Positions 2,404 to 28,754 of a DNA stretch of 32,000 bases are shown here, piece after piece (within the stretch, counting starts at the first letter, position 1; each line of letters starts with the position of its first letter). The stretch comes from Candidatus Anaerobutyricum avicola (GTDB lineage Bacteria > Bacillota > Clostridia > Lachnospirales > Lachnospiraceae). Both the position numbers and the translations under genes were made by a program. Below the pieces are notes generated by a model, which ran no database searches, had not been told where the DNA came from, and was given only the letters and a program-made list of their open reading frames with translations. The stretch lies in assembly GCA_019113845.1 (NCBI GenBank), contig DXGQ01000017.1, positions 36,608 through 68,607 of the forward strand, in the 5' to 3' direction.

Positions 2404-4074
2404 ATGAAAACAGATATTCAGATTGCACAGGAAGCGACTATGCTGCCAATCCGTGATGTGGCTGCAAAGTATGGAATTGGTGAAGATGACCTGGAATTAT
2501 ACGGAAAATATAAAGCGAAGTTTTCCGATGAACTGTTAAAAGAGATTGAAGGCCGCCCGGATGGCAAGCTGGTTCTTGTAACCGCCATCAACCCGACTCC
2601 GGCAGGAGAAGGAAAGACCACGACAAGTATCGGTCTGGCGCAGGCGCTCGCAAAGCTGGATAAGAAATGTCTCCTCGCCCTTCGCGAGCCTTCCCTCGGT
2701 CCTTGCTTCGGTATTAAGGGCGGCGCTGCCGGCGGCGGATACGCGCAGGTCGTTCCGATGGAAGATCTGAATCTGCACTTTACCGGAGACTTCCACGCCA
2801 TCACTTCTGCCAACAACCTGCTGGCAGCTATGTTAGATAACCATATCCAGCAGGGAAATGAACTGCGCATCGACACAAGACAGGTTATCTGGAAACGTTG
2901 TCTTGATATGAACGACCGCGCGCTCAGAAACATCGTCATCGGTCTCGGCAAGAAAGCGGATGGCTTTGTGCGCGAGGATCATTTTGTGATCACCGTTGCC
3001 ACGGAGATCATGGCAATCCTCTGTCTGGCAAATGATATGAAAGACTTAAAAGAACGTCTGTCCCGCATCATCGTGGCTTACGACCTGGACGGAAACCCTG
3101 TGACAGCCGGACAGCTTAAAGCAGTGGGCGCTATGGCAGCTCTGTTAAAAGATGCTATCAAACCAAATCTCATTCAGACTCTGGAGAACACCGGCGCCAT
3201 CGTGCACGGCGGACCATTTGCCAACATCGCTCACGGATGTAACAGTGTCCGTGCCACAAAGAGCGCATTAAAACTGGCCGACATCGTCATCACGGAGGCA
3301 GGATTCGGCGCAGACCTGGGCGCAGAGAAGTTCATGGATATCAAGTGCCGGATGGCAGACCTCAAACCGGACGCTGTGGTCCTCGTTGCCACAGTCCGCG
3401 CGTTAAAATATAACGGCGGCGTGCCGAAAGACCAGCTCTCCACCGAGAATCTTGACGCACTGGCAAAAGGAATCTGCAATCTCGAAAAACACATCGAGAA
3501 CCTGCAGAAGTTTGGGGTACCGATCGTGGTAACACTCAACTCCTTTGTGACAGATACGCAGGCAGAGTACGAATATATCCGCAATTTCTGCGAGGAAAGA
3601 GGCTGTGAATTTGCCCTGTCCGAAGTGTGGGCGAAAGGCGGCGAGGGCGGCATCGCTCTGGCAGAAAAAGTGCTGAACACTCTGGAAAATAAGGAGAGTA
3701 ACTTCCACGTACTGTACCCGGACGAGATGCCGTTAAAAGAAAAGATCAACACCATCGCAAAAGAAATCTACGGAGCAGACGGCGTCAATTTTGATCCGGC
3801 GGCATCCAAGATGCTCGACAAGCTGACAGAGCTTGGCTTTGGCAATCTTCCGGTCTGCATGGCAAAAACACAGTACTCCCTCTCCGACGACCAGACCAAA
3901 CTGGGACGTCCGGAAGGATTCAATATCAATGTTCGCGACGTATTTGTCAACGCCGGTGCAGGATTCGTGGTAGCGCTCACCGGAGCCATCATGACCATGC
4001 CGGGACTGCCGAAGAAACCGGCGGCATTCGGCATTGATGTGGACGACGACGGAAAGATCACGGGATTGTTCTGA
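2404..4074 (+). CDS. fhs: Formate--tetrahydrofolate ligase
   Basis: Full-length match by eye to FTHFS, including the [10 protein letters not shown] nucleotide loop and the start [11 protein letters not shown]. The ORF-track start 2398 sits only 2 nt after the GGA of the SD. The ATG at 2404 has proper spacing to AAAGGA (2391-2395). Confidence 0.95.
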
Positions 4075-5596: not shown

Positions 5597-6520
5597 TTAT
5601 GCTCGCTCAGCGAGAAAGGCGTCGATAGCCTCTTTTTCAGGAAGGGAAGGCTGAGCGCCCAGATGCTGTACGGAGATTGCGGCGGCCGCGCTGGCATAGC
5701 GGGCGGAGGAGACGATGTCTCCGGTCTCCGCATATTGTTTTACGAGAACGCCGGTAAAGCAGTCTCCGGCTGCGGTTGGGTCCACGGCGTCAACTTTAAA
5801 GGTCGGGACCATCTCGCAGATGCCCTCGCCGTAGATAAAGGAACCTTTTTCTCCCATTTTCAAAACGACGTATTTACAGCCGGAACGCTCATGAAGAATC
5901 TTGCTGGCGGCGATACAGCTCTCCTCATCTTTCGGGAGGATGCCCACAAGAGCTTCTGTCTCCGTCTCGTTTGGAGAGAGGATGGTGATTCCCTGGAACT
6001 TTTCGATCGGGTAATCCTGCGCAGGACCTGCGTCCAGACAGGTGATCATGCCGCGCTCCTTTGCCAGTGTGAAGGCGCGCAGGTTGCTCTCAAATGGAAT
6101 CTCCAGTTGCATCATGAGAGCGTCATAGGTGTCGTCGGCAAATGCCGCTTCCACGGACTCCGGTGTGGTGTCATTGTTGGCGCCGGTATAGATGGCAAGA
6201 CGGTTCATGCCGTTTTCTTCCAGCATGATGACAGCCATGCCGGTGTTGGCGCCCTCTTTTAACATGAGGTGGGAGACATTGATGCCCGCGCTTTTCAACA
6301 TGCCGAGAAGTGCTTCTCCGTTGGCGTCCTGTCCCAGGGTGCCGCAGACAGATACATTGCCGCCGGCTCTCGCTGCCGCCACGGCAGAATTACTGCCCTT
6401 TCCTCCTCCTGCGTTGGAATACGTGGTGCCCAGAAGACTCTCGCTCGGATGCGGAATCCGCGGCATTTGTAAGATCAGATCCATCATGATGCTTCCAACC
6501 ATTAAAATCTTTGCTGCCAT
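5597..6520 (-). CDS. rbsK: Ribokinase (PfkB family carbohydrate kinase)
   Basis: Motifs NAGGGKGSNSAVAAARAG and DPTAAGDCFTG are present. The start is re-set to Met35 of the ORF-track protein (MAAKILMVGS), whose ATG (6520-6518) is preceded by AAGGAGGGATCAT. Confidence 0.8.
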   Translation of the reverse strand: MAAKILMVGSIMMDLILQMPRIPHPSESLLGTTYSNAGGGKGSNSAVAAARAGGNVSVCGTLGQDANGEALLGMLKSAGINVSHLMLKEGANTGMAVIMLEENGMNRLAIYTGANNDTTPESVEAAFADDTYDALMMQLEIPFESNLRAFTLAKERGMITCLDAGPAQDYPIEKFQGITILSPNETETEALVGILPKDEESCIAASKILHERSGCKYVVLKMGEKGSFIYGEGICEMVPTFKVDAVDPTAAGDCFTGVLVKQYAETGDIVSSARYASAAAAISVQHLGAQPSLPEKEAIDAFLAERA

Positions 6521-20073: not shown

Positions 20074-20209
20074 CTTATAGGAAATTCCGTTGGAATTCCT
20101 ATAAGATAAAAATCCCTCCGGGAGGGATGCGCACTCGCGCGAAACAGAATTTTGTCGCTAAAGCGACCGCGCTCGGCGCGAGAGTTCTGTCGGGCAGAAC
20201 TCTTTTTTT
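20074..20209 (+). promoter_or_regulatory. Multi-hairpin leader element ending in an intrinsic terminator (copy X of a repeat family); probable attenuator of lysK
   Basis: H1 is a 14-bp bulged stem at 20074-20105. H2 is ATCCCTC-CGG-GAGGGAT at 20112-20128. The helix CTCGCGC (20134-20140) / GCGCGAG (20176-20182) encloses GTCGC-TAAA-GCGAC (20154-20167). The terminator is GAGTTCTG (20182-20189) / CAGAACTC (20195-20202) plus T7. The element is colinear with those at 31267-31391 and 31867-31963. Confidence 0.6.
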
Positions 20210-20312
20210 GAGGTTCCCAGAGACTGGTATGCAGACCAGTCGGTATTATTTACTGAAAAATGACCGTGTCGGTACACGGGAAAGATATGTTGTATCTATA
20301 GGAGGAAGAGGA

Positions 20313-22358
20313 ATGCATTGGTCTGAGAAGATTGCAAAAGATATCATTAAGAGATCTCCGGACAAGGAAGAGTATGTCTGCGCAGCAGGTATCAGCCCAT
20401 CGGGATCGATTCACATTGGTAATTTCAGAGATATAGCTACCAGCTATTTTGTATATAAAGCACTTTTGAAACAGGGAAAAAAGGCGAGACTGTTATTCTC
20501 CTGGGATGAGTTCGACCGTCTTCGTAAGGTTCCGGTAAATGTGAAAGAGATTGCGCCGGAGCTTGAGGAAGATATCGGTAAACCGTATGTGGATGTGAAG
20601 GACCCGTATGGCTGCTGCGGTTCTTATGCGGAGCATTTTGAGAAAGAGTTTGAGAAGTCTCTGGCACGTTTCGGCATCAAGGTGGACTTCCGGAGACAGA
20701 GTGAGAATTACAGAAGCGGCAAATATGCAAAATATGTGATCCAGGCGATCCAGAAGAGAAAAGAGATCTTTGATATCCTTGATAAGTTCCGTCAGCAGGA
20801 GGCGACGCCGGAGGAGAGAGAGGCTTACTATCCGGTGAGCATTTACTGTCCGGTCTGCGGCAAGGATGATACGACGATCACTTCTTCTTCCGAGGACGGC
20901 GTGACCTGCGAGTACACCTGTAAATGCGGTCACAGCGGACACTGGGATTTCAGCAAGGATTTCAACTGCAAGCTGGCATGGAAGATTGACTGGCCGATGC
21001 GCTGGATGGTGGAGGGCGTTGACTTTGAGCCGGGCGGAAAGGATCATGCAAGCCCGGGAGGAAGTTACGATACCAGCAAGATTATCGCCAAAAAGGTGTT
21101 TGGCATCAATGCGCCGATGTTTAAGGGATATGAGTTTATCGGAATCAAGGGCACGACCGGTAAGATGTCCGGTTCTACAGGTCTTAACCTGACGCCGGAG
21201 ACGCTGCTCAAGATTTATCAGCCGGAAGTGATCCTGTGGCTTTACTCCAAGTCTGAGCCAAACAAAGCATTTGACTTCTGCTTTGACGATGAGATCCTTC
21301 GTCAGTACTTTGAGTTTGACAAGATGTTAAAGACTTACCAGGCTGGCAAAGGGAAGAACTTTGATTATATCGAAGGTATCATGTACAACTGTATGATCGA
21401 GGGAAGAACCGTACATCCGGTGCCGATGCAGCAGATCGTAAACTTCGGTTCCGTGGTGGACTTCAATGCGGACATGCTTGAGACAGTCTTTGAAAAGATC
21501 GGTACCCCATATAAGAAGGAAGAGTTTGCGGAGCGTCTGGAGCTGGCAAAATACTGGCTGGAGAAGTGTGCGCCGCAGAACATGAACACCCTTCTCGGAT
21601 ACCGCAACTGGGATTACTATAATACATTAAATGAGGTGGAGAAAAAAGAGATTGCACTGCTTCACGATTATATCGCGAAAGGCGAATACGACCTCGATTC
21701 TCTGAATACATTTATTTACTCTGTTCCAAGAGAGGCGGACCCGAATTTCGATGAGGAGAACAAGAAAGCGATTCAGGCGAACTTCTTCAAAAACGCCTAC
21801 AATCTGATGATCGGCAAGGCGGCAGGACCGAGACTGTACCTGTTCCTCTACGCTGTGGAGCCGGAGAGATATCTCTCCTTACTGGACTTCTCCACACCGC
21901 AGACGGAGGAGGAGAAAGAGCTCGCAGCCGCAGCGAAAGCTGAGGCAGAGCGAATCGCAGCCGAAGAAGCAGCAGCCGCAGCGGCGGCAGCCGAGGAGGA
22001 AGCCCGTCGGGCATCCATCGCCCCGGTAAAACCGCAGATCACCATCGACGACTTTGACAAGATGGATATGCGTGTCTGCAAGGTCACTGCCTGTGAGATC
22101 GTAAAGAATGCGGAGAAGCTGTTAAAGATCACACTGTTTGACGGTCTGGGAGAGAGAATCATCGTATCCTCCATCCGTGACGAATATACACCGGAAGAGC
22201 TGATCGGACGGAAGATCATCGTTCTTGCCAACTTGAAACCGGCGAAGTTTGCCGGCGTAAAGAGCAACGGCATGCTTCTGGCTGCCACTCACGACGACTG
22301 CGGCTGCAAGCTGATCTTTGTGGACGACAGCGTGCCGGAGGGAACAGCGATCCACTAA
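20313..22358 (+). CDS. lysK: Class I lysine--tRNA ligase fused to a C-terminal Trbp111/EMAPII-like tRNA-binding domain
   Basis: GISPSGSIHIGNFRD (HIGH) and TTGKMSGSTG (KMSKS-like) are present, with overall class-I LysRS character. An Ala/Glu-rich linker (about 21900-22010) precedes the OB domain FDKMDMRVCKVTACE...LANLKPAKFAGVKSNGMLL. The start is re-set to the ATG at 20313, 6 nt after GGAGGAAGAGGA. The ORF-track extension back to 20127 covers the leader RNA. Confidence 0.9.
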   Translation: MHWSEKIAKDIIKRSPDKEEYVCAAGISPSGSIHIGNFRDIATSYFVYKALLKQGKKARLLFSWDEFDRLRKVPVNVKEIAPELEEDIGKPYVDVKDPYGCCGSYAEHFEKEFEKSLARFGIKVDFRRQSENYRSGKYAKYVIQAIQKRKEIFDILDKFRQQEATPEEREAYYPVSIYCPVCGKDDTTITSSSEDGVTCEYTCKCGHSGHWDFSKDFNCKLAWKIDWPMRWMVEGVDFEPGGKDHASPGGSYDTSKIIAKKVFGINAPMFKGYEFIGIKGTTGKMSGSTGLNLTPETLLKIYQPEVILWLYSKSEPNKAFDFCFDDEILRQYFEFDKMLKTYQAGKGKNFDYIEGIMYNCMIEGRTVHPVPMQQIVNFGSVVDFNADMLETVFEKIGTPYKKEEFAERLELAKYWLEKCAPQNMNTLLGYRNWDYYNTLNEVEKKEIALLHDYIAKGEYDLDSLNTFIYSVPREADPNFDEENKKAIQANFFKNAYNLMIGKAAGPRLYLFLYAVEPERYLSLLDFSTPQTEEEKELAAAAKAEAERIAAEEAAAAAAAAEEEARRASIAPVKPQITIDDFDKMDMRVCKVTACEIVKNAEKLLKITLFDGLGERIIVSSIRDEYTPEELIGRKIIVLANLKPAKFAGVKSNGMLLAATHDDCGCKLIFVDDSVPEGTAIH

Positions 22359-22479: not shown

Positions 22480-23121
22480 ATGAAAGCATTAATTTTTGAC
22501 CTGGGCATGGTGCTGATTCATTTTCGGTGGAGAGATTTCCTCACGGATATGGGATATGAAGGGGAGAAAAAAGAGGGACTTGCGAGAGCAATGTTTCAGA
22601 ATCCTTTGTGGACGGAGTTCGACCGGGGCGTGATGGGGGATGAGAACGTCATCGCGCAGATGCAGCTGGAATCGCCGCAGTACGCGGAAGATATCGAGCG
22701 CATCTGGCAGAAGGAGAATTTCGTTAATATCTGCCATCCTTTTGATTATTCGGAGGAGCTGATCCGCACGCTCCATGAGATGGGATATAAGATTTATGTG
22801 CTGTCCAACTATGGAAAGACATTGTTGGGACTTAACCGTACGAAATATACATTTTTAAACTATGTGGATGGAGGCGTCTTCTCCTGTGATGTAAAACTGT
22901 TAAAGCAGGATGATGCGATTTATCAGGAACTCATTGAGAAGTACGGTATTGACCCGGAAAATGCAGTCTTCTTTGATGATCTGGAAGCAAACTGCGAGGG
23001 CGCCCGCCGGGCGGGTATCACTGCCGTGCAGGTGACCGACGGACTTCGCTCTATCCTGGATGGTCTGAGAGAAGAGTGCGGGGTCGAACTGCCGGCGATG
23101 GAGAGATATCTGAAAGATTAG
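22480..23121 (+). CDS. HAD-superfamily hydrolase (subfamily IA-like)
   Basis: Motif I is MKALIFDLGMVLI (DxG). Motif II is LSNYG. Motif III/IV is FFDDLEAN. AGAGGAG lies 9 nt upstream of the ATG. Confidence 0.8.
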   Translation: MKALIFDLGMVLIHFRWRDFLTDMGYEGEKKEGLARAMFQNPLWTEFDRGVMGDENVIAQMQLESPQYAEDIERIWQKENFVNICHPFDYSEELIRTLHEMGYKIYVLSNYGKTLLGLNRTKYTFLNYVDGGVFSCDVKLLKQDDAIYQELIEKYGIDPENAVFFDDLEANCEGARRAGITAVQVTDGLRSILDGLREECGVELPAMERYLKD

Positions 23122-23141
23122 TAAACAACGGAGAATCAACA

Positions 23142-26100
23142 ATGAAAAAATTAGTATTAGCAGAGAAGCCCTCGGTGGCAAGAGATATCGCCCGGGTGCT
23201 TGGCTGCAAAAAGCAGACGAAAAATTATATCGAAGGTGATAAATATGTAGTCACCTGGGGGCTGGGGCATCTGGTGACGCTGGCGGACCCGGAGGGTTAT
23301 GATAAGAAGCTTAAGACCTGGAGGATGGAAGATCTGCCTATGATGCCGGAGCACCTGAAACTGGTGGTGATTCCGCAGACGAGGGGGCAGTTTCAGGCGG
23401 TGAAGAATCAGATGGAGCGCAAAGACATTTCCGAGGTGATCATCGCCACGGACGCCGGACGGGAAGGCGAGCTGGTGGCGCGGTGGATCATCGTTAAGGC
23501 AGGCTGTAAGAAGCCCCTTCGCCGTCTGTGGATTTCCTCGGTGACAGATAAGGCCATCCGGGAGGGATTTGCGCATCTTAAGGATGCGAAGGAGTACGAG
23601 AATCTGTACCGGGCGGCGGTGGCAAGAGCGGAAGCGGACTGGCTGGTGGGGATCAACGCCACTCGCGCGCTCACCTGCAAGTATAACGCGCAGCTTTCCT
23701 GCGGCCGGGTGCAGACGCCGACGCTCGCCATGATCGCGGCGCGGGAGGAAGAGATCCGGCATTTTGTTCCAAAGCCATATTACGGGCTGCAGGCAAACTG
23801 GAAAGGCGTCACATTTACATGGAAGGAGCGGGGCAGCGGAAGTTCTTCTGTCTTTTCCAAAGAGTCAAGGGACCGGGCGTATGACCGGGCAAAAAATGCG
23901 GCAGGCAGGGTGGTTTCTGTCAAAAAGATGAAGAAGACTTCGCATCTGGACGGATTATATGATCTGACGACCTTGCAGAGAGACGCCAATCAGCGGTTTG
24001 GTTTCTCTGCCAAGCAGACGCTGAACCTGATGCAGAGTCTTTACGAGCATCATAAAGTTCTGACTTATCCGAGAACCGATTCCCGGTACTTAACCACAGA
24101 TGTGGCGGAGACGCTTCGTGAGAGGGTGTCGGCGGTGGCGGTGGGACCGTACCGCGTCTATGCCAACAGTATTTTAAAGGGGAAGATCAAGACAGGGCCT
24201 TCCTTTGTCAACAATAAGAAGGTTTCCGATCATCACGCAATCATTCCGACGGAGCAGCCGGTCATTCTGGCACAGCTTTCCGTAGATGAGAGAAAGATTT
24301 TTGATCTGGTGGCGCGGCGTTTTCTGGCGATGCTGTATCCGGCTTATGAATATGAGCAGACGGCGGTGACGGTGGACTGCGGAGGAGAAACCTTTGAGGT
24401 GAAAGGAAATGTACCTCTGCGTCTGGGGTTTAAGGAAGTGCTCACCGATCAGGATAGCGAGGCGGAACGGGTCCTTCCGGCGTGGACGGAGGGGGAAAGT
24501 CTCGGAACTCCGGTCTTGAAAGCGACGGAAGGCAAGACGAAGCCACCGGCGAGATTTACGGAAGGAACACTTCTGCAGGCCATGGAAAATCCGGTGAAAT
24601 ATATGCAGAGCAAAGATAAAACTGCGGCAAAAACGCTTCAGGAAACCGGAGGGCTTGGAACGGTGGCTACCCGGGCGGATATCATTGATAAGCTGTTCCG
24701 TTCTTTCCTCATTGAGAAGAAAGAAAATGAGATTCAACTGACGGGCAAGGCGAAGCAGCTTTTGCAGCTGGTGCCGGAAGATTTAAAGAAGCCGGAGCTT
24801 ACCGCCCAGTGGGAGATGAAGCTTAACGGTATAGCCAACGGGAAGCTCAGACAGAGTACGTTCATGAAAGAAATCCGCCATTATGCCACGGATCTGACAG
24901 AAGAGATCAAAGGCGGGGAAGGGACTTTCCGCCATGATAATCTGACCAACAAGCATTGTCCGCAGTGTGGAAAACGACTGCTGGCTGTGAATGGCAAACA
25001 GGGAAAACTGCTCGTGTGTCAGGACAGAGAATGCGGTTACCGGGAGCGGGTTTCCCGTCTTACCAACGCCCGCTGTCCGGTCTGTCATAAACGGATGGAA
25101 CTCATCGGCCAGAAAGAGAATCAGAAGTTTGTCTGCGTCTGCGGACATAAGGAGTCGATGAAAGCCTTTGAGGAGCGGCGCAAGCGGGAAGGCGCCGGTG
25201 TATCAAAAAGGGATGTACAAAACTATATGAAAAAGATGAAAAAAGAAGAAAAACAGCCGGTCAATAATGCGCTGGCGGACGCCCTTGCCAATATCAAGCT
25301 GTGTCTTCTGCTCGTATTTGGCGTGCTGTCGCTGATGACGATAAGCGTGGATGCGTCGGCGGCCGGGGAAACCGGCGTGACGAGTGAGGCAGAAGAAATC
25401 TCTGCGTCTGCACAGAAAAGAAACGCCGCCGGCAGGCAGATTGCCAGTATGTTTCCGACAGATATGGATGTGCGGCCGGTGACGGCGCATTCCATCAAGT
25501 ATGATACCGTGAATGTATACAGTGACGCCGTGCTCACCCAGCAGGCGGGACAGGTGGAGGGAGGCAGACTGCGCCTTACCGCTTACCGGGTGGAAGGCAA
25601 GGCAATCTATGGCGATTATGTGAGCGGGGATATGCAGGGAAGCGGCTGGTTTTCTGTTGACACCTTTGTGGAAAATCCGGACTATGAGCCGGTGTACGCG
25701 CTGGCGAGGGACCGTATGTACGCCTACACGGACAGCAGTTTTGATGAAGTGCGGGGTAAGATAAAAAAATACACCGGAGTCATCGTGGTGAGCCGGGAAG
25801 GTGGAAACCGACAGGTGATTTTTGAGACAAATGACGGCTATGAGATCGGCTGGATGACCAGCGACGCTTTTTCCAACTGCCTGCTCTATGACGGAAGGGA
25901 GAAGCAGGTTCTTTCTGACGGAACCTATCTGTTCCGGTGCGGGTACACGGAGGATGCGGACGGCGGCGCAGAGATCGCGAACCAGACAGGATTGACGGAT
26001 TATGACAGTTACACGATGGAACTGATCTATGTTTCTGATAATGATTATTTTGTAAAGAATCAGGAGACCGGTCAGTATCTTTCCGCCGGAAAGACCGGGA

Positions 26101-26927
26101 TAACCGGACAAACCGAAACAGTAAAACAAACAGGGACAGAGGAGCAAGCCGGACAAGCGGGAGAGATAGAGGAAGAATCTGATTCTGACGTGGAAGAAAT
26201 ATGGGTTCCGGTCTGGACGGAAGAACCGGACGAAAAAACGGGACTGTTTCATTTTAACAGAAACGGTGGCTCCTTTGCTGTGCAGAACACACTCTGTCGT
26301 CTGTTTCTGGGACAGAACGAAGAGAGAAAACTTGTTTTTCTGGAAAACAGGCAGAGTGACGCCAGCCACTGGAGGGTCAGCGCCGCGGAGGAACTGTTTG
26401 ACCGGGAACAGCCGATGATATTTACCCAGTACGACCCGGAATGGTGCGGGACGCCGTACGGAGGCGGCGGAAGTATGGGGACGGCAGGCTGTGGCGTCCT
26501 GGCCGCTGTCAATGCGGTGTATTCCCTTTCCGGGCACTATATGGATGTGATGGAGCTGGCAGATTACGCTGTGGAGAAGAACTACCGGATCGTGGGCAGC
26601 GGTACCGATGACGGGATCTTCAAAGGGGCATGTCAGGAGTTTGGCAGGAAATATAATTTTGCCTGGGATGGAAAGAGCGGCAGCGTCGATGTTCTGAAAG
26701 AAAAGCTGTTGGCGGGAGATGTAGCCATCGCTCATGTGCCGGGACATTATGTGGTCATCGGCGCCTACAGCAAAAAGAAAAATAAATATCTCGTGCTGGA
26801 TTCCAACTATCTGCCAAAGAGAGCGACAAGCGCTTTTGGCGACTGGGTCTCTGTGGAACGGCTTCTGGAAGGAAGTCTGATGGGACAGAATTTTTATTTT
26901 TATAAGCTGCGGGATACGGTTTCTTAA
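23142..26927 (+). CDS. topB: DNA topoisomerase III continuing in frame into a TM/signal-like helix, SH3b-like repeats and a C39-like papain-fold peptidase domain (single 1261-aa ORF)
   Basis: TopB part: MKKLVLAEKPSVARDIA, Toprim IIATDAGREGELV, active site LTYPRTDSRYL, zinc ribbons CPQCG..CQDRECG and CPVCH..CVCGH, and the basic tail ...KKMKKEEKQPVNNALADALANIKL. No stop follows. Codons from 25299 give LCLLLVFGVLSLMTISVDASAAG. A further ~520 aa end in QYDPEWCG...GTAGCGVLAAVNA...PGHYVVIGAY...LDSNY. The start ATG at 23142 lies 7 nt after ACGGAGA. Confidence 0.75.
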   Translation: MKKLVLAEKPSVARDIARVLGCKKQTKNYIEGDKYVVTWGLGHLVTLADPEGYDKKLKTWRMEDLPMMPEHLKLVVIPQTRGQFQAVKNQMERKDISEVIIATDAGREGELVARWIIVKAGCKKPLRRLWISSVTDKAIREGFAHLKDAKEYENLYRAAVARAEADWLVGINATRALTCKYNAQLSCGRVQTPTLAMIAAREEEIRHFVPKPYYGLQANWKGVTFTWKERGSGSSSVFSKESRDRAYDRAKNAAGRVVSVKKMKKTSHLDGLYDLTTLQRDANQRFGFSAKQTLNLMQSLYEHHKVLTYPRTDSRYLTTDVAETLRERVSAVAVGPYRVYANSILKGKIKTGPSFVNNKKVSDHHAIIPTEQPVILAQLSVDERKIFDLVARRFLAMLYPAYEYEQTAVTVDCGGETFEVKGNVPLRLGFKEVLTDQDSEAERVLPAWTEGESLGTPVLKATEGKTKPPARFTEGTLLQAMENPVKYMQSKDKTAAKTLQETGGLGTVATRADIIDKLFRSFLIEKKENEIQLTGKAKQLLQLVPEDLKKPELTAQWEMKLNGIANGKLRQSTFMKEIRHYATDLTEEIKGGEGTFRHDNLTNKHCPQCGKRLLAVNGKQGKLLVCQDRECGYRERVSRLTNARCPVCHKRMELIGQKENQKFVCVCGHKESMKAFEERRKREGAGVSKRDVQNYMKKMKKEEKQPVNNALADALANIKLCLLLVFGVLSLMTISVDASAAGETGVTSEAEEISASAQKRNAAGRQIASMFPTDMDVRPVTAHSIKYDTVNVYSDAVLTQQAGQVEGGRLRLTAYRVEGKAIYGDYVSGDMQGSGWFSVDTFVENPDYEPVYALARDRMYAYTDSSFDEVRGKIKKYTGVIVVSREGGNRQVIFETNDGYEIGWMTSDAFSNCLLYDGREKQVLSDGTYLFRCGYTEDADGGAEIANQTGLTDYDSYTMELIYVSDNDYFVKNQETGQYLSAGKTGITGQTETVKQTGTEEQAGQAGEIEEESDSDVEEIWVPVWTEEPDEKTGLFHFNRNGGSFAVQNTLCRLFLGQNEERKLVFLENRQSDASHWRVSAAEELFDREQPMIFTQYDPEWCGTPYGGGGSMGTAGCGVLAAVNAVYSLSGHYMDVMELADYAVEKNYRIVGSGTDDGIFKGACQEFGRKYNFAWDGKSGSVDVLKEKLLAGDVAIAHVPGHYVVIGAYSKKKNKYLVLDSNYLPKRATSAFGDWVSVERLLEGSLMGQNFYFYKLRDTVS

Positions 26928-27050
26928 CGTGTTGGCATGACATGATGCGAAATGTAAACATGTCGGATACCCAGGCGGATGAAATATCAGGAAATGAATC
27001 TGATGTTATCAACAGATGTAAAAAATGGATATCAGGGAAAGAGGAATGGC

Positions 27051-28754
27051 ATGAATAAGATAGAAGAGCTGCGGCGGGTGCTGCAGCGGATGGACCATAA
27101 AAGTTATGGAATGTATAAAAGCCTGGCGGGCGCCTACGACTGTGGGAGATATGTTCTGCACATTGATCATGTGCAGGGGGATCCTTTTGCGTCTCCGTCG
27201 CGGCTTCGGTTTGAAGTGAAAAAGGCGGCTCATGGCTTCCCGGAGGAATACTGGAAAGAAAAACACCGGCGTCTGGCGCTGGAAGACCAGGTACTCCGGC
27301 GGTTTAACGGCTTCTTACGAAAAATGGACAGAGGAAATATGGGTTCCGGCAAGAGCGGCAGGATCACCACCTGTCGTACCGGGCAGAAGGTGCTGGAGCG
27401 GATCGCCGTGGTATTTTCAGAAAACAGGATGGAGCTCCGGTTTGAGATGGGATTTCCGGCAAGGGGCAGAAGCATCCTTGCCGATGAGATGAGCCGTCTG
27501 TTATTTGACATTCTGCCGAAGCTGGCGGGGAACTGCCTGTTTTATGACCGGTGGGATGCCGGAAGTAAAGAGCGTCTGCAGGCAGCCATTTTTCTGGCGG
27601 ACGACCAGAAGGCGCTGCGGGAGGAACTGGTAAAGAGAAAGCTGGCGGCTTTTGTGGCGGACGGCGCCATCCTGCCGCGGGAGAGCGGTATCTCCGATCT
27701 GCCGATGAAGAAGGCGGTGGCCTTTCATTCTCCGGAAACGCTGCGGACAGAAATCCCTCTGCCGCACAGAGGAGTGATTACCGGCATGGGGATTCCGGAG
27801 GGAATCACTGTCATCGTGGGCGGCGGCTATCACGGAAAATCCACCCTGCTGAAAGCGTTGGAGCAGGGCGTGTATGATCATATCGCCGGGGACGGCAGAG
27901 AATATGTGGTTTCCCGCGACTACGCCATGAAAATCCGCGCCGAGGACGGAAGAAGCGTTATGCACACGGATATTTCCATGTTCATCAACCATCTGCCAAA
28001 CGGGCAGGATACGACAGACTTCTCCACGGAAAATGCCAGCGGCAGCACTTCCCAGGCAGCCAATCTGGTGGAGGCGCTGGAGGCGGGCTCCCGCCTGCTG
28101 TTGTTGGATGAAGATACTTCCGCCACGAACTTCATGATCCGGGATAAGGTGATGGCGCGGCTCGTATCGGACGACAGGGAGCCGATCACGACACTGCTGC
28201 GGCACATCCGGGCTCTCTATGAGAGGCACGGCATTTCCTTTGTGATCGTCGTGGGAAGTTCCGGCGATTATCTGTCTGTGGCGGACCATGTATTGCAGAT
28301 GGATCATTATGAAGTAAAGGATGTGACACAGACGGCAAAGACCATCTGTGGGGAGGAACAGATCAGCGGGCTGTATCCGGCGGGCGAACTTTCCTTCCCG
28401 GATTTTGCGAGAGCGCTGAAGCCGGCGGGAGCAGGACGGATGAAAATGAAAGCCATGGGGACGGACACCGTGATGATCGACCGGGAGACGGTGGATGTGC
28501 GGTATCTGGAACAGCTATCCGATGATGGACAGACAGTGGGGCTGGCGTATCTGCTCAGTTGGATTTTGTCCAATCAGAAAAGGAAAATGACCATCACTGC
28601 GCTGCTGGACGATATGTACCGGCAGATAGAGAAACAGGGACTGCAAAGTTTTATTCCGCCGAATTATTCCTGCGGACATCCGGTCCTCCCGAGAAAACAG
28701 GAACTGTTTGCCTGTCTGAACCGATACCGGAAGGCGAAGATTGTCCGTGACTGA
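27051..28754 (+). CDS. ABC-class ATPase of unknown function (COG3044 / ABC_ATPase family)
   Basis: Walker A is GGGYHGKSTLLKAL. Walker B is RLLLLDEDTSATNFM. The N-terminus YVLHIDHVQGDPFASPSRLRFEV is typical of this family. The start is re-set to the ATG at 27051, 6 nt after AAGAGGA. Confidence 0.85.
   Translation: MNKIEELRRVLQRMDHKSYGMYKSLAGAYDCGRYVLHIDHVQGDPFASPSRLRFEVKKAAHGFPEEYWKEKHRRLALEDQVLRRFNGFLRKMDRGNMGSGKSGRITTCRTGQKVLERIAVVFSENRMELRFEMGFPARGRSILADEMSRLLFDILPKLAGNCLFYDRWDAGSKERLQAAIFLADDQKALREELVKRKLAAFVADGAILPRESGISDLPMKKAVAFHSPETLRTEIPLPHRGVITGMGIPEGITVIVGGGYHGKSTLLKALEQGVYDHIAGDGREYVVSRDYAMKIRAEDGRSVMHTDISMFINHLPNGQDTTDFSTENASGSTSQAANLVEALEAGSRLLLLDEDTSATNFMIRDKVMARLVSDDREPITTLLRHIRALYERHGISFVIVVGSSGDYLSVADHVLQMDHYEVKDVTQTAKTICGEEQISGLYPAGELSFPDFARALKPAGAGRMKMKAMGTDTVMIDRETVDVRYLEQLSDDGQTVGLAYLLSWILSNQKRKMTITALLDDMYRQIEKQGLQSFIPPNYSCGHPVLPRKQELFACLNRYRKAKIVRD

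Follow-up and report, generated by a model that had tools for sequence, protein, structure and literature searches.

We analysed a 32,000-nucleotide stretch of DNA from Candidatus Anaerobutyricum avicola (Lachnospiraceae), called the window throughout, and all coordinates are given in its numbering. Its plus strand carries an open reading frame (ORF) at 23076..26927 which, according to the ORF listing, is likely to start at the ATG at 23142 with the TopB-type sequence MKKLVLAEKPS and then encodes 1261 amino acids (aa): a predicted DNA topoisomerase III (TopB), a short hydrophobic segment and a C-terminal module of exported type. No stop codon separates the TopB part from the module, the DNA between 25100 and 25500 forming one open frame. 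This is a real, ancient and selectively maintained fusion of unusual architecture, inherited and not a recent accident. Related contigs and loci are referred to by L-numbers and protein clusters by P-numbers. The parts of the frame are the following.

23142..25301, plus strand: TopB portion, residues 1-720, ending ...ANIKL without a stop; the TopB stop of relatives comes right after this KL
24060..24092, plus strand: active-site motif LTYPRTDSRYL with the catalytic Tyr309, kept in 8/8 fused species
24957-25040 and 25074-25148, plus strand: two Cys4 zinc ribbons, CPQC...CQDREC and CPVC...CVC, read from the translation
25227..25301, plus strand: basic, amphipathic TopB tail MKKMKKEEKQPVNNALADALANIKL, near-identical in fused and unfused species
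25302..25361, plus strand: putative signal-peptide remnant, residues 721-740, with h-region CLLLVFGVLSLMTI and c-region SVDASA, aligning with the h- and c-regions of stand-alone homologues
25362..25451, plus strand: disordered Ala/Glu/Ser-rich linker after the predicted cleavage site (predicted local distance difference test, pLDDT, <50)
25452..26924, plus strand: exported-type module from the conserved FPTDM motif onwards (homologue alignment, AlphaFold, Foldseek and Pfam)
25479-25655 and 25692-25856, plus strand: two small all-beta domains in the AlphaFold model
25878-26384, plus strand: predicted beta-trefoil (ricin-like) with a disordered insert at 26121-26186 (AlphaFold, Foldseek, and Pfam in homologues)
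26436-26909, plus strand: papain-like C39_2 domain (Pfam and AlphaFold)
26490..26801, plus strand: putative catalytic residues Cys1117 (26490-26492), His1202 (26745-26747) and Asp1220 (26799-26801)
26925..26927, plus strand: TAA stop of the fused ORF (from the translation, also checked in the comparison of fused species)

The topB frame and the module that follows it

The window protein matched the NCBIfam models TIGR01056 over residues 1-715 (779.9 bits, cut-off 515.75) and NF005829 (813.9 bits, cut-off 597) as well as Pfam Toprim (residues 3-132, E 2.2e-11) and Topoisom_bac (residues 151-576, E 1.4e-113). Judged by these profiles, its first half is a DNA topoisomerase III (type IA), an ordinary member of the family apart from the missing stop. 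TopB proteins of this lineage usually end near the basic tail, at about 720 aa, and the window protein continues for another 541 residues. An identical 1261-aa protein from Candidatus Anaerobutyricum avicola is deposited as HIW59246.1 and is annotated over its full length only as 'DNA topoisomerase III'. An earlier, sequence-only reading of this DNA had described a complete TopB without a stop joined to a downstream module and had pointed out the Tyr motif, the two Cys4 ribbons and the basic tail; the 1261-aa frame and the two NCBIfam scores above their cut-offs agree with this description, and each of the elements was found where it had been placed.

The junction reads ...ANIKL (25287-25301; GCC AAT ATC AAG CTG TGT CTT CTG CTC in the DNA), followed by CLLLVFGVLSLMTISVDASA (25302-25361) and then by AGETG. 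The TopB tail MKKMKKEEKQPVNNALADALANIKL thus occupies the place of a lost signal-peptide n-region, and it holds two in-frame ATGs, at 25227 and 25236.

Homologues of the module were searched in a collection of 5.8 billion proteins and proved to be stand-alone proteins, mostly of 470-550 aa, with ordinary N-terminal signal peptides (for example MNIKRIVFASLFCIAMLFCVGKKAEA followed by AFPYDMEQKPV). In an AlphaFold model built on the family alignment (mean pLDDT 82.5, predicted template modelling score 0.77), the C-terminal domain adopts a papain-like alpha/beta fold that is confident over model residues 404-561. Pfam Peptidase_C39_2 (PF13529) matched marginally, with 25.5 bits for the full protein and 27.0 bits for the C-terminal half at a threshold of 24, and it matched 32/32 family members (best E 1.4e-8). 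Cys1117, His1202 and Asp1220 are invariant in the 32-sequence family alignment and also present in 8/8 fused species, so that the papain-type order of Cys, His and Asp proposed by the sequence-only reading, which had named the Cys codon at 26490 exactly, fell on invariant columns. The domain is hence a marginal but consistent member of the C39_2 family with predicted peptidase activity.

The classical C39 profile of bacteriocin-processing peptidases (PF03412) had no match in the window protein at E <= 0.1, and the downstream gene (26979-28754) has as its orthologue in relatives a soluble protein of the PF09818 ABC_ATPase/MRB1590-like family, not an exporter; on both grounds the C39_2-like domain is taken not to be a classical bacteriocin-processing domain. 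A search of PDB sequences with the family profile returned nothing at E <= 1. Among viral models, Foldseek matched the model to phage proteins named 'Peptidase' (E 5e-8 and 1e-6) as well as to tape-measure and morphogenesis proteins, in their peptidase domains. The chemistry of the domain is not to be assumed, because a C39-like protein is reported to have glycosidase activity (PMC13642728).

Ahead of the papain-like domain, the module is modelled to contain a beta-trefoil domain of lectin type. Foldseek against the PDB matched designed and natural beta-trefoils with a probability of 1.0 and a target-normalised TM-score (TMt, template modelling) of up to 0.69, and RicinB_lectin_2 (PF14200) was found by Pfam in 17/32 homologues, the window protein itself giving no match to PF14200 at E <= 0.05. 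The sequence-only reading had overlooked this domain and had taken its disordered insert (26121-26186) for a Gly/Thr/Glu/Gln-rich linker. It had further named two SH3b-like stretches; two small beta domains do lie there, and their identity as SH3b domains is possible. Pfam SH3 matched neither the window protein nor any of the 32 homologues, in contrast to Toprim, Topoisom_bac and Peptidase_C39_2, which that reading had also suggested and which were all matched in the window protein. Fold comparison of the whole model gave weak matches to SH3b-containing proteins (YrvJ model, E 2e-6; BT_1314, E 1e-4) and a weak match to a phage SH3b protein (root-mean-square deviation 2.2 over 74 columns, E 0.046). 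Altogether, there is good support for a cysteine peptidase module of exported type that binds wall or glycan, and it would probably act on peptidoglycan or another surface polymer.

Two side observations concern the module. An antisense ORF of 514 aa lies opposite to it on the minus strand (25203-26747); most likely it merely shadows the coding strand, which is GC-rich. In a 7086-nt ENA contig, a 537-aa protein (P0032) resembles the N-terminal part of an FtsX/MacB-type permease over its first ~235 residues, and its remainder corresponds to the C-terminal 56% of the C39-like module at 77% identity; this protein may be a metagenomic chimera or else a further fusion.

Distribution, origin and age of the fusion

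The 90% cluster of the window protein comprised 97 members from NCBI, ENA and Logan assemblies, on contigs of up to 2.3 Mb. The junction was identical in 14/14 cluster members read, the only difference being an indel of 21 aa in the linker. This is a length polymorphism within the species, with alleles of 1261 and 1282 aa and the indel located between GVTSEA repeats; most cluster members have 1282 aa with the 21 extra residues (AVVQAEGVAPEQSE[AV]GVTSEA), which the window allele is without. Fused, uninterrupted ORFs of 1198-1302 aa were also present in L007 (Ca. A. faecale), L008, L009 (Ca. A. stercoripullorum), L011, L012, L015 and L036. The fused species are all joined at the same point, ...AN[IL]K[LF], with a hydrophobic stretch directly after it. 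A sequencing or assembly indel, one of the explanations offered by the sequence-only reading, is refuted by the 97-member cluster and by the same junction in other species.

A search with TopB only recovered further fused clusters (P0136-P0142 and P0144-P0146) of ~1160-1255 aa, two of which have 74 and 61 members. The TopB clusters at least 80% identical to that of the window were all fused except P0143, the gene of L010, whose tail holds a stop, and P0147, an unfused protein of 748 aa ending in ...SGLKL. Among the listed TopB clusters less than 80% identical, lengths were ~610-755 aa, with the exception of P0190, a TopB-ApbE fusion of 1055 aa. A phmmer search with TopB against a representative library clustered at 50% was uninformative on signal-peptide fusions, the fused clade collapsing there into ordinary TopB clusters; the longer matches in that search were distant TopBs with other C-terminal extensions.

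In unfused relatives (L002, L013, L014, L016-L021, L032 and L035, which include A. hallii DSM 3353), topB ends in KL and a stop, commonly as KLKL, as GLKL in L013 and as ALAGLKL in L002, and the next gene has its own start with an n-region of MNIKR type. The topB stop TAG overlaps a GGAGG or GGAG Shine-Dalgarno motif (TAGGAGG or TAGGAG) in six of these loci (L002, L013, L016, L017, L019 and L032), which implies tight translational coupling of topB and the exoprotein gene. In L002, whose module is 60% identical to that of the window, the 719-aa TopB ends in ...ALAGLKL-TAG and the next gene starts 8 nt further on with MTKEKEKLKSHTWKYLGLLCFGILLF (stop region 5986-6003). Sister species thus have a stop, a Shine-Dalgarno motif and a separate signal-peptide gene at this place, and the order of topB, C39-like gene and PF09818 ABC_ATPase-family gene was conserved in the relatives inspected.

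The in-frame joining of topB to the secreted C39_2-like gene took place in the ancestry of an Anaerobutyricum-like clade of Lachnospiraceae and did away with the topB stop, the overlapping Shine-Dalgarno motif and both the ATG and the Met-Lys n-region of the downstream gene. If 68 nt are deleted from an L002-like sequence between two GCTGT repeats, the result is AAG CTG TGT (K-L-C), as found in the window; an origin of the fusion by a deletion of ~68 nt is a reconstruction of this kind. The sequence-only reading had considered a recent deletion between topB and a downstream secreted-protein gene. The deletion stands, whereas its recency does not, given at least eight fused species representatives and synonymous divergence (dS) near or at saturation.

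To place the joining in the phylogeny, neighbour-joining trees with 200 bootstrap replicates were calculated from an alignment of 1729 columns in which TopB, the module and the downstream ABC_ATPase-family protein were concatenated. The fused species were monophyletic in 179/200 replicates, and together with the unfused pair L002/L013 they formed a clade in 200/200. Single genes recovered the monophyly of the fused species in 102/200 (module) and 198/200 (ABC) replicates. A single origin is favoured because of the bootstrap support and the identical position of the junction, and the monophyly is moderately supported. Multiple independent origins of the fusion were considered and are less parsimonious on the same two grounds, although TopB alone recovers the fused species as a group in so few replicates (see below).

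Within the fused clade, substitution rates were estimated by the method of Nei and Gojobori. dS was ~1 or saturated, and the ratio of nonsynonymous to synonymous divergence (dN/dS) of the module was 0.06-0.16 where dS could be estimated (0.061 for L007-L008, 0.056 for L012-L036 and 0.093 for the window and L007), that of TopB being 0.02-0.07. The catalytic motifs of both halves are intact in 8/8 fused species. The saturation of dS, the low dN/dS and the intact motifs indicate that the fusion is old and that both halves were kept working while fused; many species have inherited it, and purifying selection has been strong on each half.

Several observations weigh against this picture of an undisturbed, singly acquired fusion. 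With TopB alone, the fused species were monophyletic in only 26/200 replicates. L010 has a junction of the fused type with in-frame TAG codons at 3058 (in the tail) and 3421 (in the first beta domain), and the gene ends in TAA; its sequence is otherwise well conserved. The two codons may reflect recent pseudogenisation, a sequencing error or TAG read-through; read-through or an alternative code was considered and set aside, since TAG normally ends topB in the genus. L001 (160-340; the contig of P0001) has the fused junction with a frameshift ~60 codons later, and its gene call splits off the module without a signal peptide. P0136, with a junction near-identical to that of L001, is an intact fusion of 1255 aa, for which reason the L001 frameshift is probably an assembly error or a strain lesion. 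The lesions in L001 and L010 show that the module can be lost and that the arrangement is not untouchable, and they leave the overall picture unchanged.

The joining of a TopB tail to an exported partner is not confined to this clade and has happened independently elsewhere. P0190 (L038:105-3272, from an uncultured relative in the Lachnospiraceae; 1055 aa, 12 members, one contig inspected) contains a TopB 69% identical to that of the window whose tail (...ALANL) is joined to the h-region and lipobox of ApbE, the junction reading ...EPVNNAFAEALANL, then FLLCIMIVALTGC, then GRPG. The partner is a lipoprotein, the FAD:protein FMN transferase ApbE, and the genes that follow directly downstream are NusG_II and rnfCDGEAB-type genes. 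A homologue search with 143 residues of the ApbE part gave a single match, which led to the unfused locus L039 (185-2824); there, ...AEALAKLGL-TAA abuts an ATG that opens MMKKEIGIVFFAVLLFLSGC followed by QKT, and ApbE has its own n-region MMKKEIG. As read from these loci, the TopB tail has evidently replaced the n-region of the next gene at least twice, and neither the partner nor the type of signal was the same. This recurrence argues for the viability of such fusions and gives a hint that a TopB tail, being basic and amphipathic, may stand in well for an n-region.

Other observations concern the gene neighbourhood. In L006 (3079-4683) the C39-like gene lies directly after lysS, with no HAD gene or topB between them, so not every member of the group has topB next to the C39-like gene. 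In the window, the ORF at 20127-22358 is class I lysyl-tRNA synthetase-like and contains a long Ala/Glu-rich linker (AAAKAEAERIAAEEAAAAAAAAEEEARRAS); its orthologue in L006 consists of tRNA-synt_1f and a C-terminal tRNA_bind domain. No Shine-Dalgarno site precedes the listed ATG at 20127 (-3.4 kcal/mol), and the true start is probably further downstream.

The embedded signal-peptide remnant and the proposed fate of the chain

The hydrophobic segment at the junction had been recognised by the sequence-only reading as the h- and c-regions of a signal peptide without its own Met-Lys n-region, and the stand-alone secreted homologues in relatives bear this out. The uncharged run of the window protein (LCLLLVFGVLSLMTISV) is 17 residues long with a Kyte-Doolittle mean over 15 residues of 2.73 and is followed by ASA and A; by the -3/-1 rule and by homology, a signal peptidase I site is predicted between ASA and AG, that is, between 25361 and 25362. 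The h-region has 15-17 residues in 10/11 fused lineages (22 in P0139), compared with 14-17 in unfused signal peptides. Its sequence has diverged among the fused species (CLLLVFGVLSLMTI, VLVLFFGLFAFLTM, GLLLGFMLTAFWLSG and CLAVLFCLSALMASG) with hydrophobicity kept, the 19-residue Kyte-Doolittle mean being 2.1-2.4 in most of them and 1.68 in L011. Small residues at -3 and -1 are present in every fused lineage, though the c-region has otherwise diverged, and in L012, L036 and P0145 the site is still A/Q-x-A followed by AFPxDM, in the same position as in unfused homologues. The segment starts at residue 721 and thereby departs from the N-terminal position with a Met and a basic n-region that defines a signal peptide. 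By descent and by its h- and c-region properties, it is predicted to be a signal peptide, but not an N-terminal one.

We give about an even chance to an arrangement in which one chain is made, the module is exported and signal peptidase I cleaves between them. One chain of 1261 aa would be translated; as there is no stop before 26925, ribosomes translating topB must make the full chain. We infer the later steps from sequence properties. On leaving the ribosome, the hydrophobic segment would be recognised co-translationally as signal peptides are, the basic TopB tail would serve as an oversized n-region and remain inside the cell, and the C-terminal module would be threaded through SecYEG. Signal peptidase I would then cut between ASA and AG and leave the module with the N-terminus AGETG. 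The released module with its beta domains, beta-trefoil lectin and Cys peptidase would be secreted or associated with the cell wall. TopB would be left in the cytoplasm with a hydrophobic tail of ~20 residues, and would either stay at the membrane or be freed once proteases of the SppA/RasP type trim the remnant; TepA, SppA and RasP are implicated in clearing cleaved signal peptides in B. subtilis (PMC7048088). In effect, the secretion machinery would split a naturally occurring bacterial polyprotein. The length and hydrophobicity of the h-region and the residues at -3 and -1 were kept, a pattern expected under selection for export and cleavage and one which a permanent anchor does not need. 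Tentatively, and at slightly less than even confidence, we propose in more general terms that a folded 720-residue cytoplasmic DNA enzyme can act as the 'n-region' of a working Sec signal peptide, that the Sec machinery separates TopB from an exported protein (by signal peptidase I here and by Lgt/Lsp in TopB-ApbE), that TopB is co-translationally brought to the membrane and that its tail predisposes to such fusions.

Some considerations speak against cleavage of a single chain. In a model system of the endoplasmic reticulum, changed flanking sequences turned a cleavable signal into an uncleaved signal-anchor (PMC2115504), and for this reason the 720-residue N-terminal extension might block cleavage. 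The site between ASA and AG is itself a prediction from the -3/-1 rule and homology. The Met at 25236 is conserved everywhere, equally in unfused species, and initiation independent of a Shine-Dalgarno motif is possible in the A-rich MKKMKK region.

The last point bears on internal initiation at ATG 25227 or 25236, already raised by the sequence-only reading, by which the secreted protein would be made separately, the codons of MKKMKKEEKQPVNNALADALANIKL would double as a long n-region and the full-length fusion would be a tolerated by-product. We regard this as unlikely, yet as an alternative of real weight. Two in-frame ATG-AAA-AAG runs lie 25 and 22 codons before the h-region in an A-rich stretch, the resulting peptide would have a net charge of +3 and a normal h- and c-region, and in the TopB-ApbE fusion, too, a YMKK lies ~22 codons ahead of the h-region. 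Against it, no Shine-Dalgarno motif at proper spacing was found in any fused species. Pairing energies before the internal ATGs were -3.7 to -7.4 kcal/mol in fused and -1.5 to -10.1 kcal/mol in unfused species, compared with a background of -4.4 +/- 3.0 kcal/mol at random in-frame positions; the values of the window (-6.7 kcal/mol for 25227 and +0.3 kcal/mol for 25236) are no better than this background. A promoter scan gave no plus-strand promoter-like site within ~1 kb upstream, so that neither scan lent support to the proposal. MKKMKK is present in unfused TopBs and therefore older than the fusion, hence it was not selected for a role as start, and the first Met is Ile (ATA) in L012 and P0142. 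Ribosomes on topB enter the module anyway, as no stop intervenes.

Next comes an uncleaved bitopic protein, also proposed by the sequence-only reading, in which the segment serves as a permanent signal-anchor (N-in, C-out) and TopB is tethered to the membrane with the peptidase module outside. AlphaFold predicts a continuous helix of 23 residues across the TopB tail and the h-region, and the 19-residue hydrophobicity means given above would suit an anchor, as would the effect of flanking sequences on cleavable signals (PMC2115504). The uncharged core has, however, not lengthened from its 15-17 residues (22 in P0139), a typical anchor being longer (about 19 or more apolar residues), and the small residues at -3 and -1 are kept in all lineages; the TopB dN/dS of 0.02-0.07 also appears harder to reconcile with permanent tethering. 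The short h-region and the AXA-type site thus favour cleavage, and tethering, though a rival to be taken seriously, is unlikely.

Improbable, in our judgement, is a fusion that stays in the cytoplasm, where the internal segment goes unrecognised and the module of the 142-kDa protein is inert or newly intracellular. The position of the signal, internal and behind a large folded domain, would be compatible with it. Hydrophobicity, h-region length and the -3/-1 pattern were, however, kept by selection despite sequence divergence, and the module retains every invariant residue of its secreted homologues. The parallel ApbE fusion retains the lipobox Cys, and its ApbE adjoins an rnf operon; ApbE is a flavinylating enzyme and would be expected to modify the products of that operon outside the cytoplasm.

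That the frame is an artefact or a decaying pseudogene, produced by an assembly or sequencing indel or by a recent lesion towards gene loss, is very improbable: the L001 frameshift, the two TAGs within the L010 gene and a cluster member that is a frameshifted fragment (P0130) would fit it, against a 97-member cluster drawn from three independent data sources, intact ORFs in eight species representatives and ~10 further clusters, and dN/dS far below 1 with synonymous sites near or at saturation.

If the proposed export and cleavage are true, even a very large, folded extension at the N-terminus is compatible in nature with bacterial Sec targeting and with cutting by signal peptidase, and two neighbouring genes can become one polyprotein that is processed during secretion; signal-peptide prediction and genome annotation do not normally assume either. 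The label 'DNA topoisomerase III' hides a conserved secreted-type peptidase module, which predictors based on the N-terminus would call cytoplasmic, and the recurrence with ApbE suggests a searchable class of hidden fusions. The clade provides matched fused and unfused sister species, with the cultured A. hallii as an unfused control, in which the fate of a cytoplasmic enzyme left on a cleaved signal peptide could be studied.

Relation to known systems

A literature search found no description of TopB, or of any soluble DNA enzyme, fused through a signal peptide or membrane link. The novelty lies in how the parts are combined: a cytoplasmic enzyme is followed by an internal signal peptide and by an exoprotein unrelated to it, and this arrangement is conserved across species. 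The closest counterpart is the two-gene locus of A. hallii DSM 3353 and relatives (L017, L002, L013 and others), which shares with the window the order HAD hydrolase, topB, C39_2-like gene and PF09818 gene (lysS lies further upstream in the window), the TopB tail (...ALANLKL), the start of the mature module (AFPxDME) and its set of domains. It differs in the overlap of the topB TAG with the GGAGG of the next gene and in a secreted protein that starts from a Met and a basic n-region of its own; compared with this pair, the window misses ~68 nt and the two genes are one ORF. The TopB-ApbE fusion P0190 resembles the window protein in the direct joining of the tail to the h-region of an exported partner and in the loss of stop, start and n-region. 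It differs in its lipobox (LTGC), for which processing by Lgt/Lsp is expected instead of signal peptidase I, and in the loss of the last 2 residues of TopB.

The C-terminal part shares its predicted fold with phage virion-associated and endolysin-type cysteine peptidases that carry SH3b-type domains, and the B. subtilis YrvJ model and BT_1314 (SH3b with NlpC/P60) match it weakly. Sequence identity is only 8-22%, the window shows no phage context and its module has an extra beta-trefoil.

In PASTA kinases of the PknB/PrkC type, a cytoplasmic catalytic domain is followed by one helix and extracellular cell-wall-binding domains, the same order of parts as in the window protein. The helices of these kinases are uncleaved anchors of ~20 or more residues with functionally coupled sides, whereas the segment of the window protein is derived from a signal peptide and has kept its cleavage motif.

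Precursors cut at an internal signal sequence are the nearest known precedent in mechanism. Viral polyproteins are cut by host signal peptidase, and the cytochrome b/c1 precursor FbcH of Bradyrhizobium japonicum was reportedly found by Thony-Meyer and colleagues (about 1989-1991) to be a polyprotein cut at an internal signal peptide. FbcH and the window protein have in common that one ORF encodes two mature proteins around an internal signal sequence; that the two are otherwise separate proteins is seen, for the window, in its two-gene relatives. FbcH is cleaved by signal peptidase, and a corresponding split of the window protein would follow from the conserved cleavage motif. The upstream part of FbcH is a polytopic membrane protein of the same complex as the downstream part, whereas that of the window protein is a soluble DNA enzyme with no functional relation to the part that is exported.

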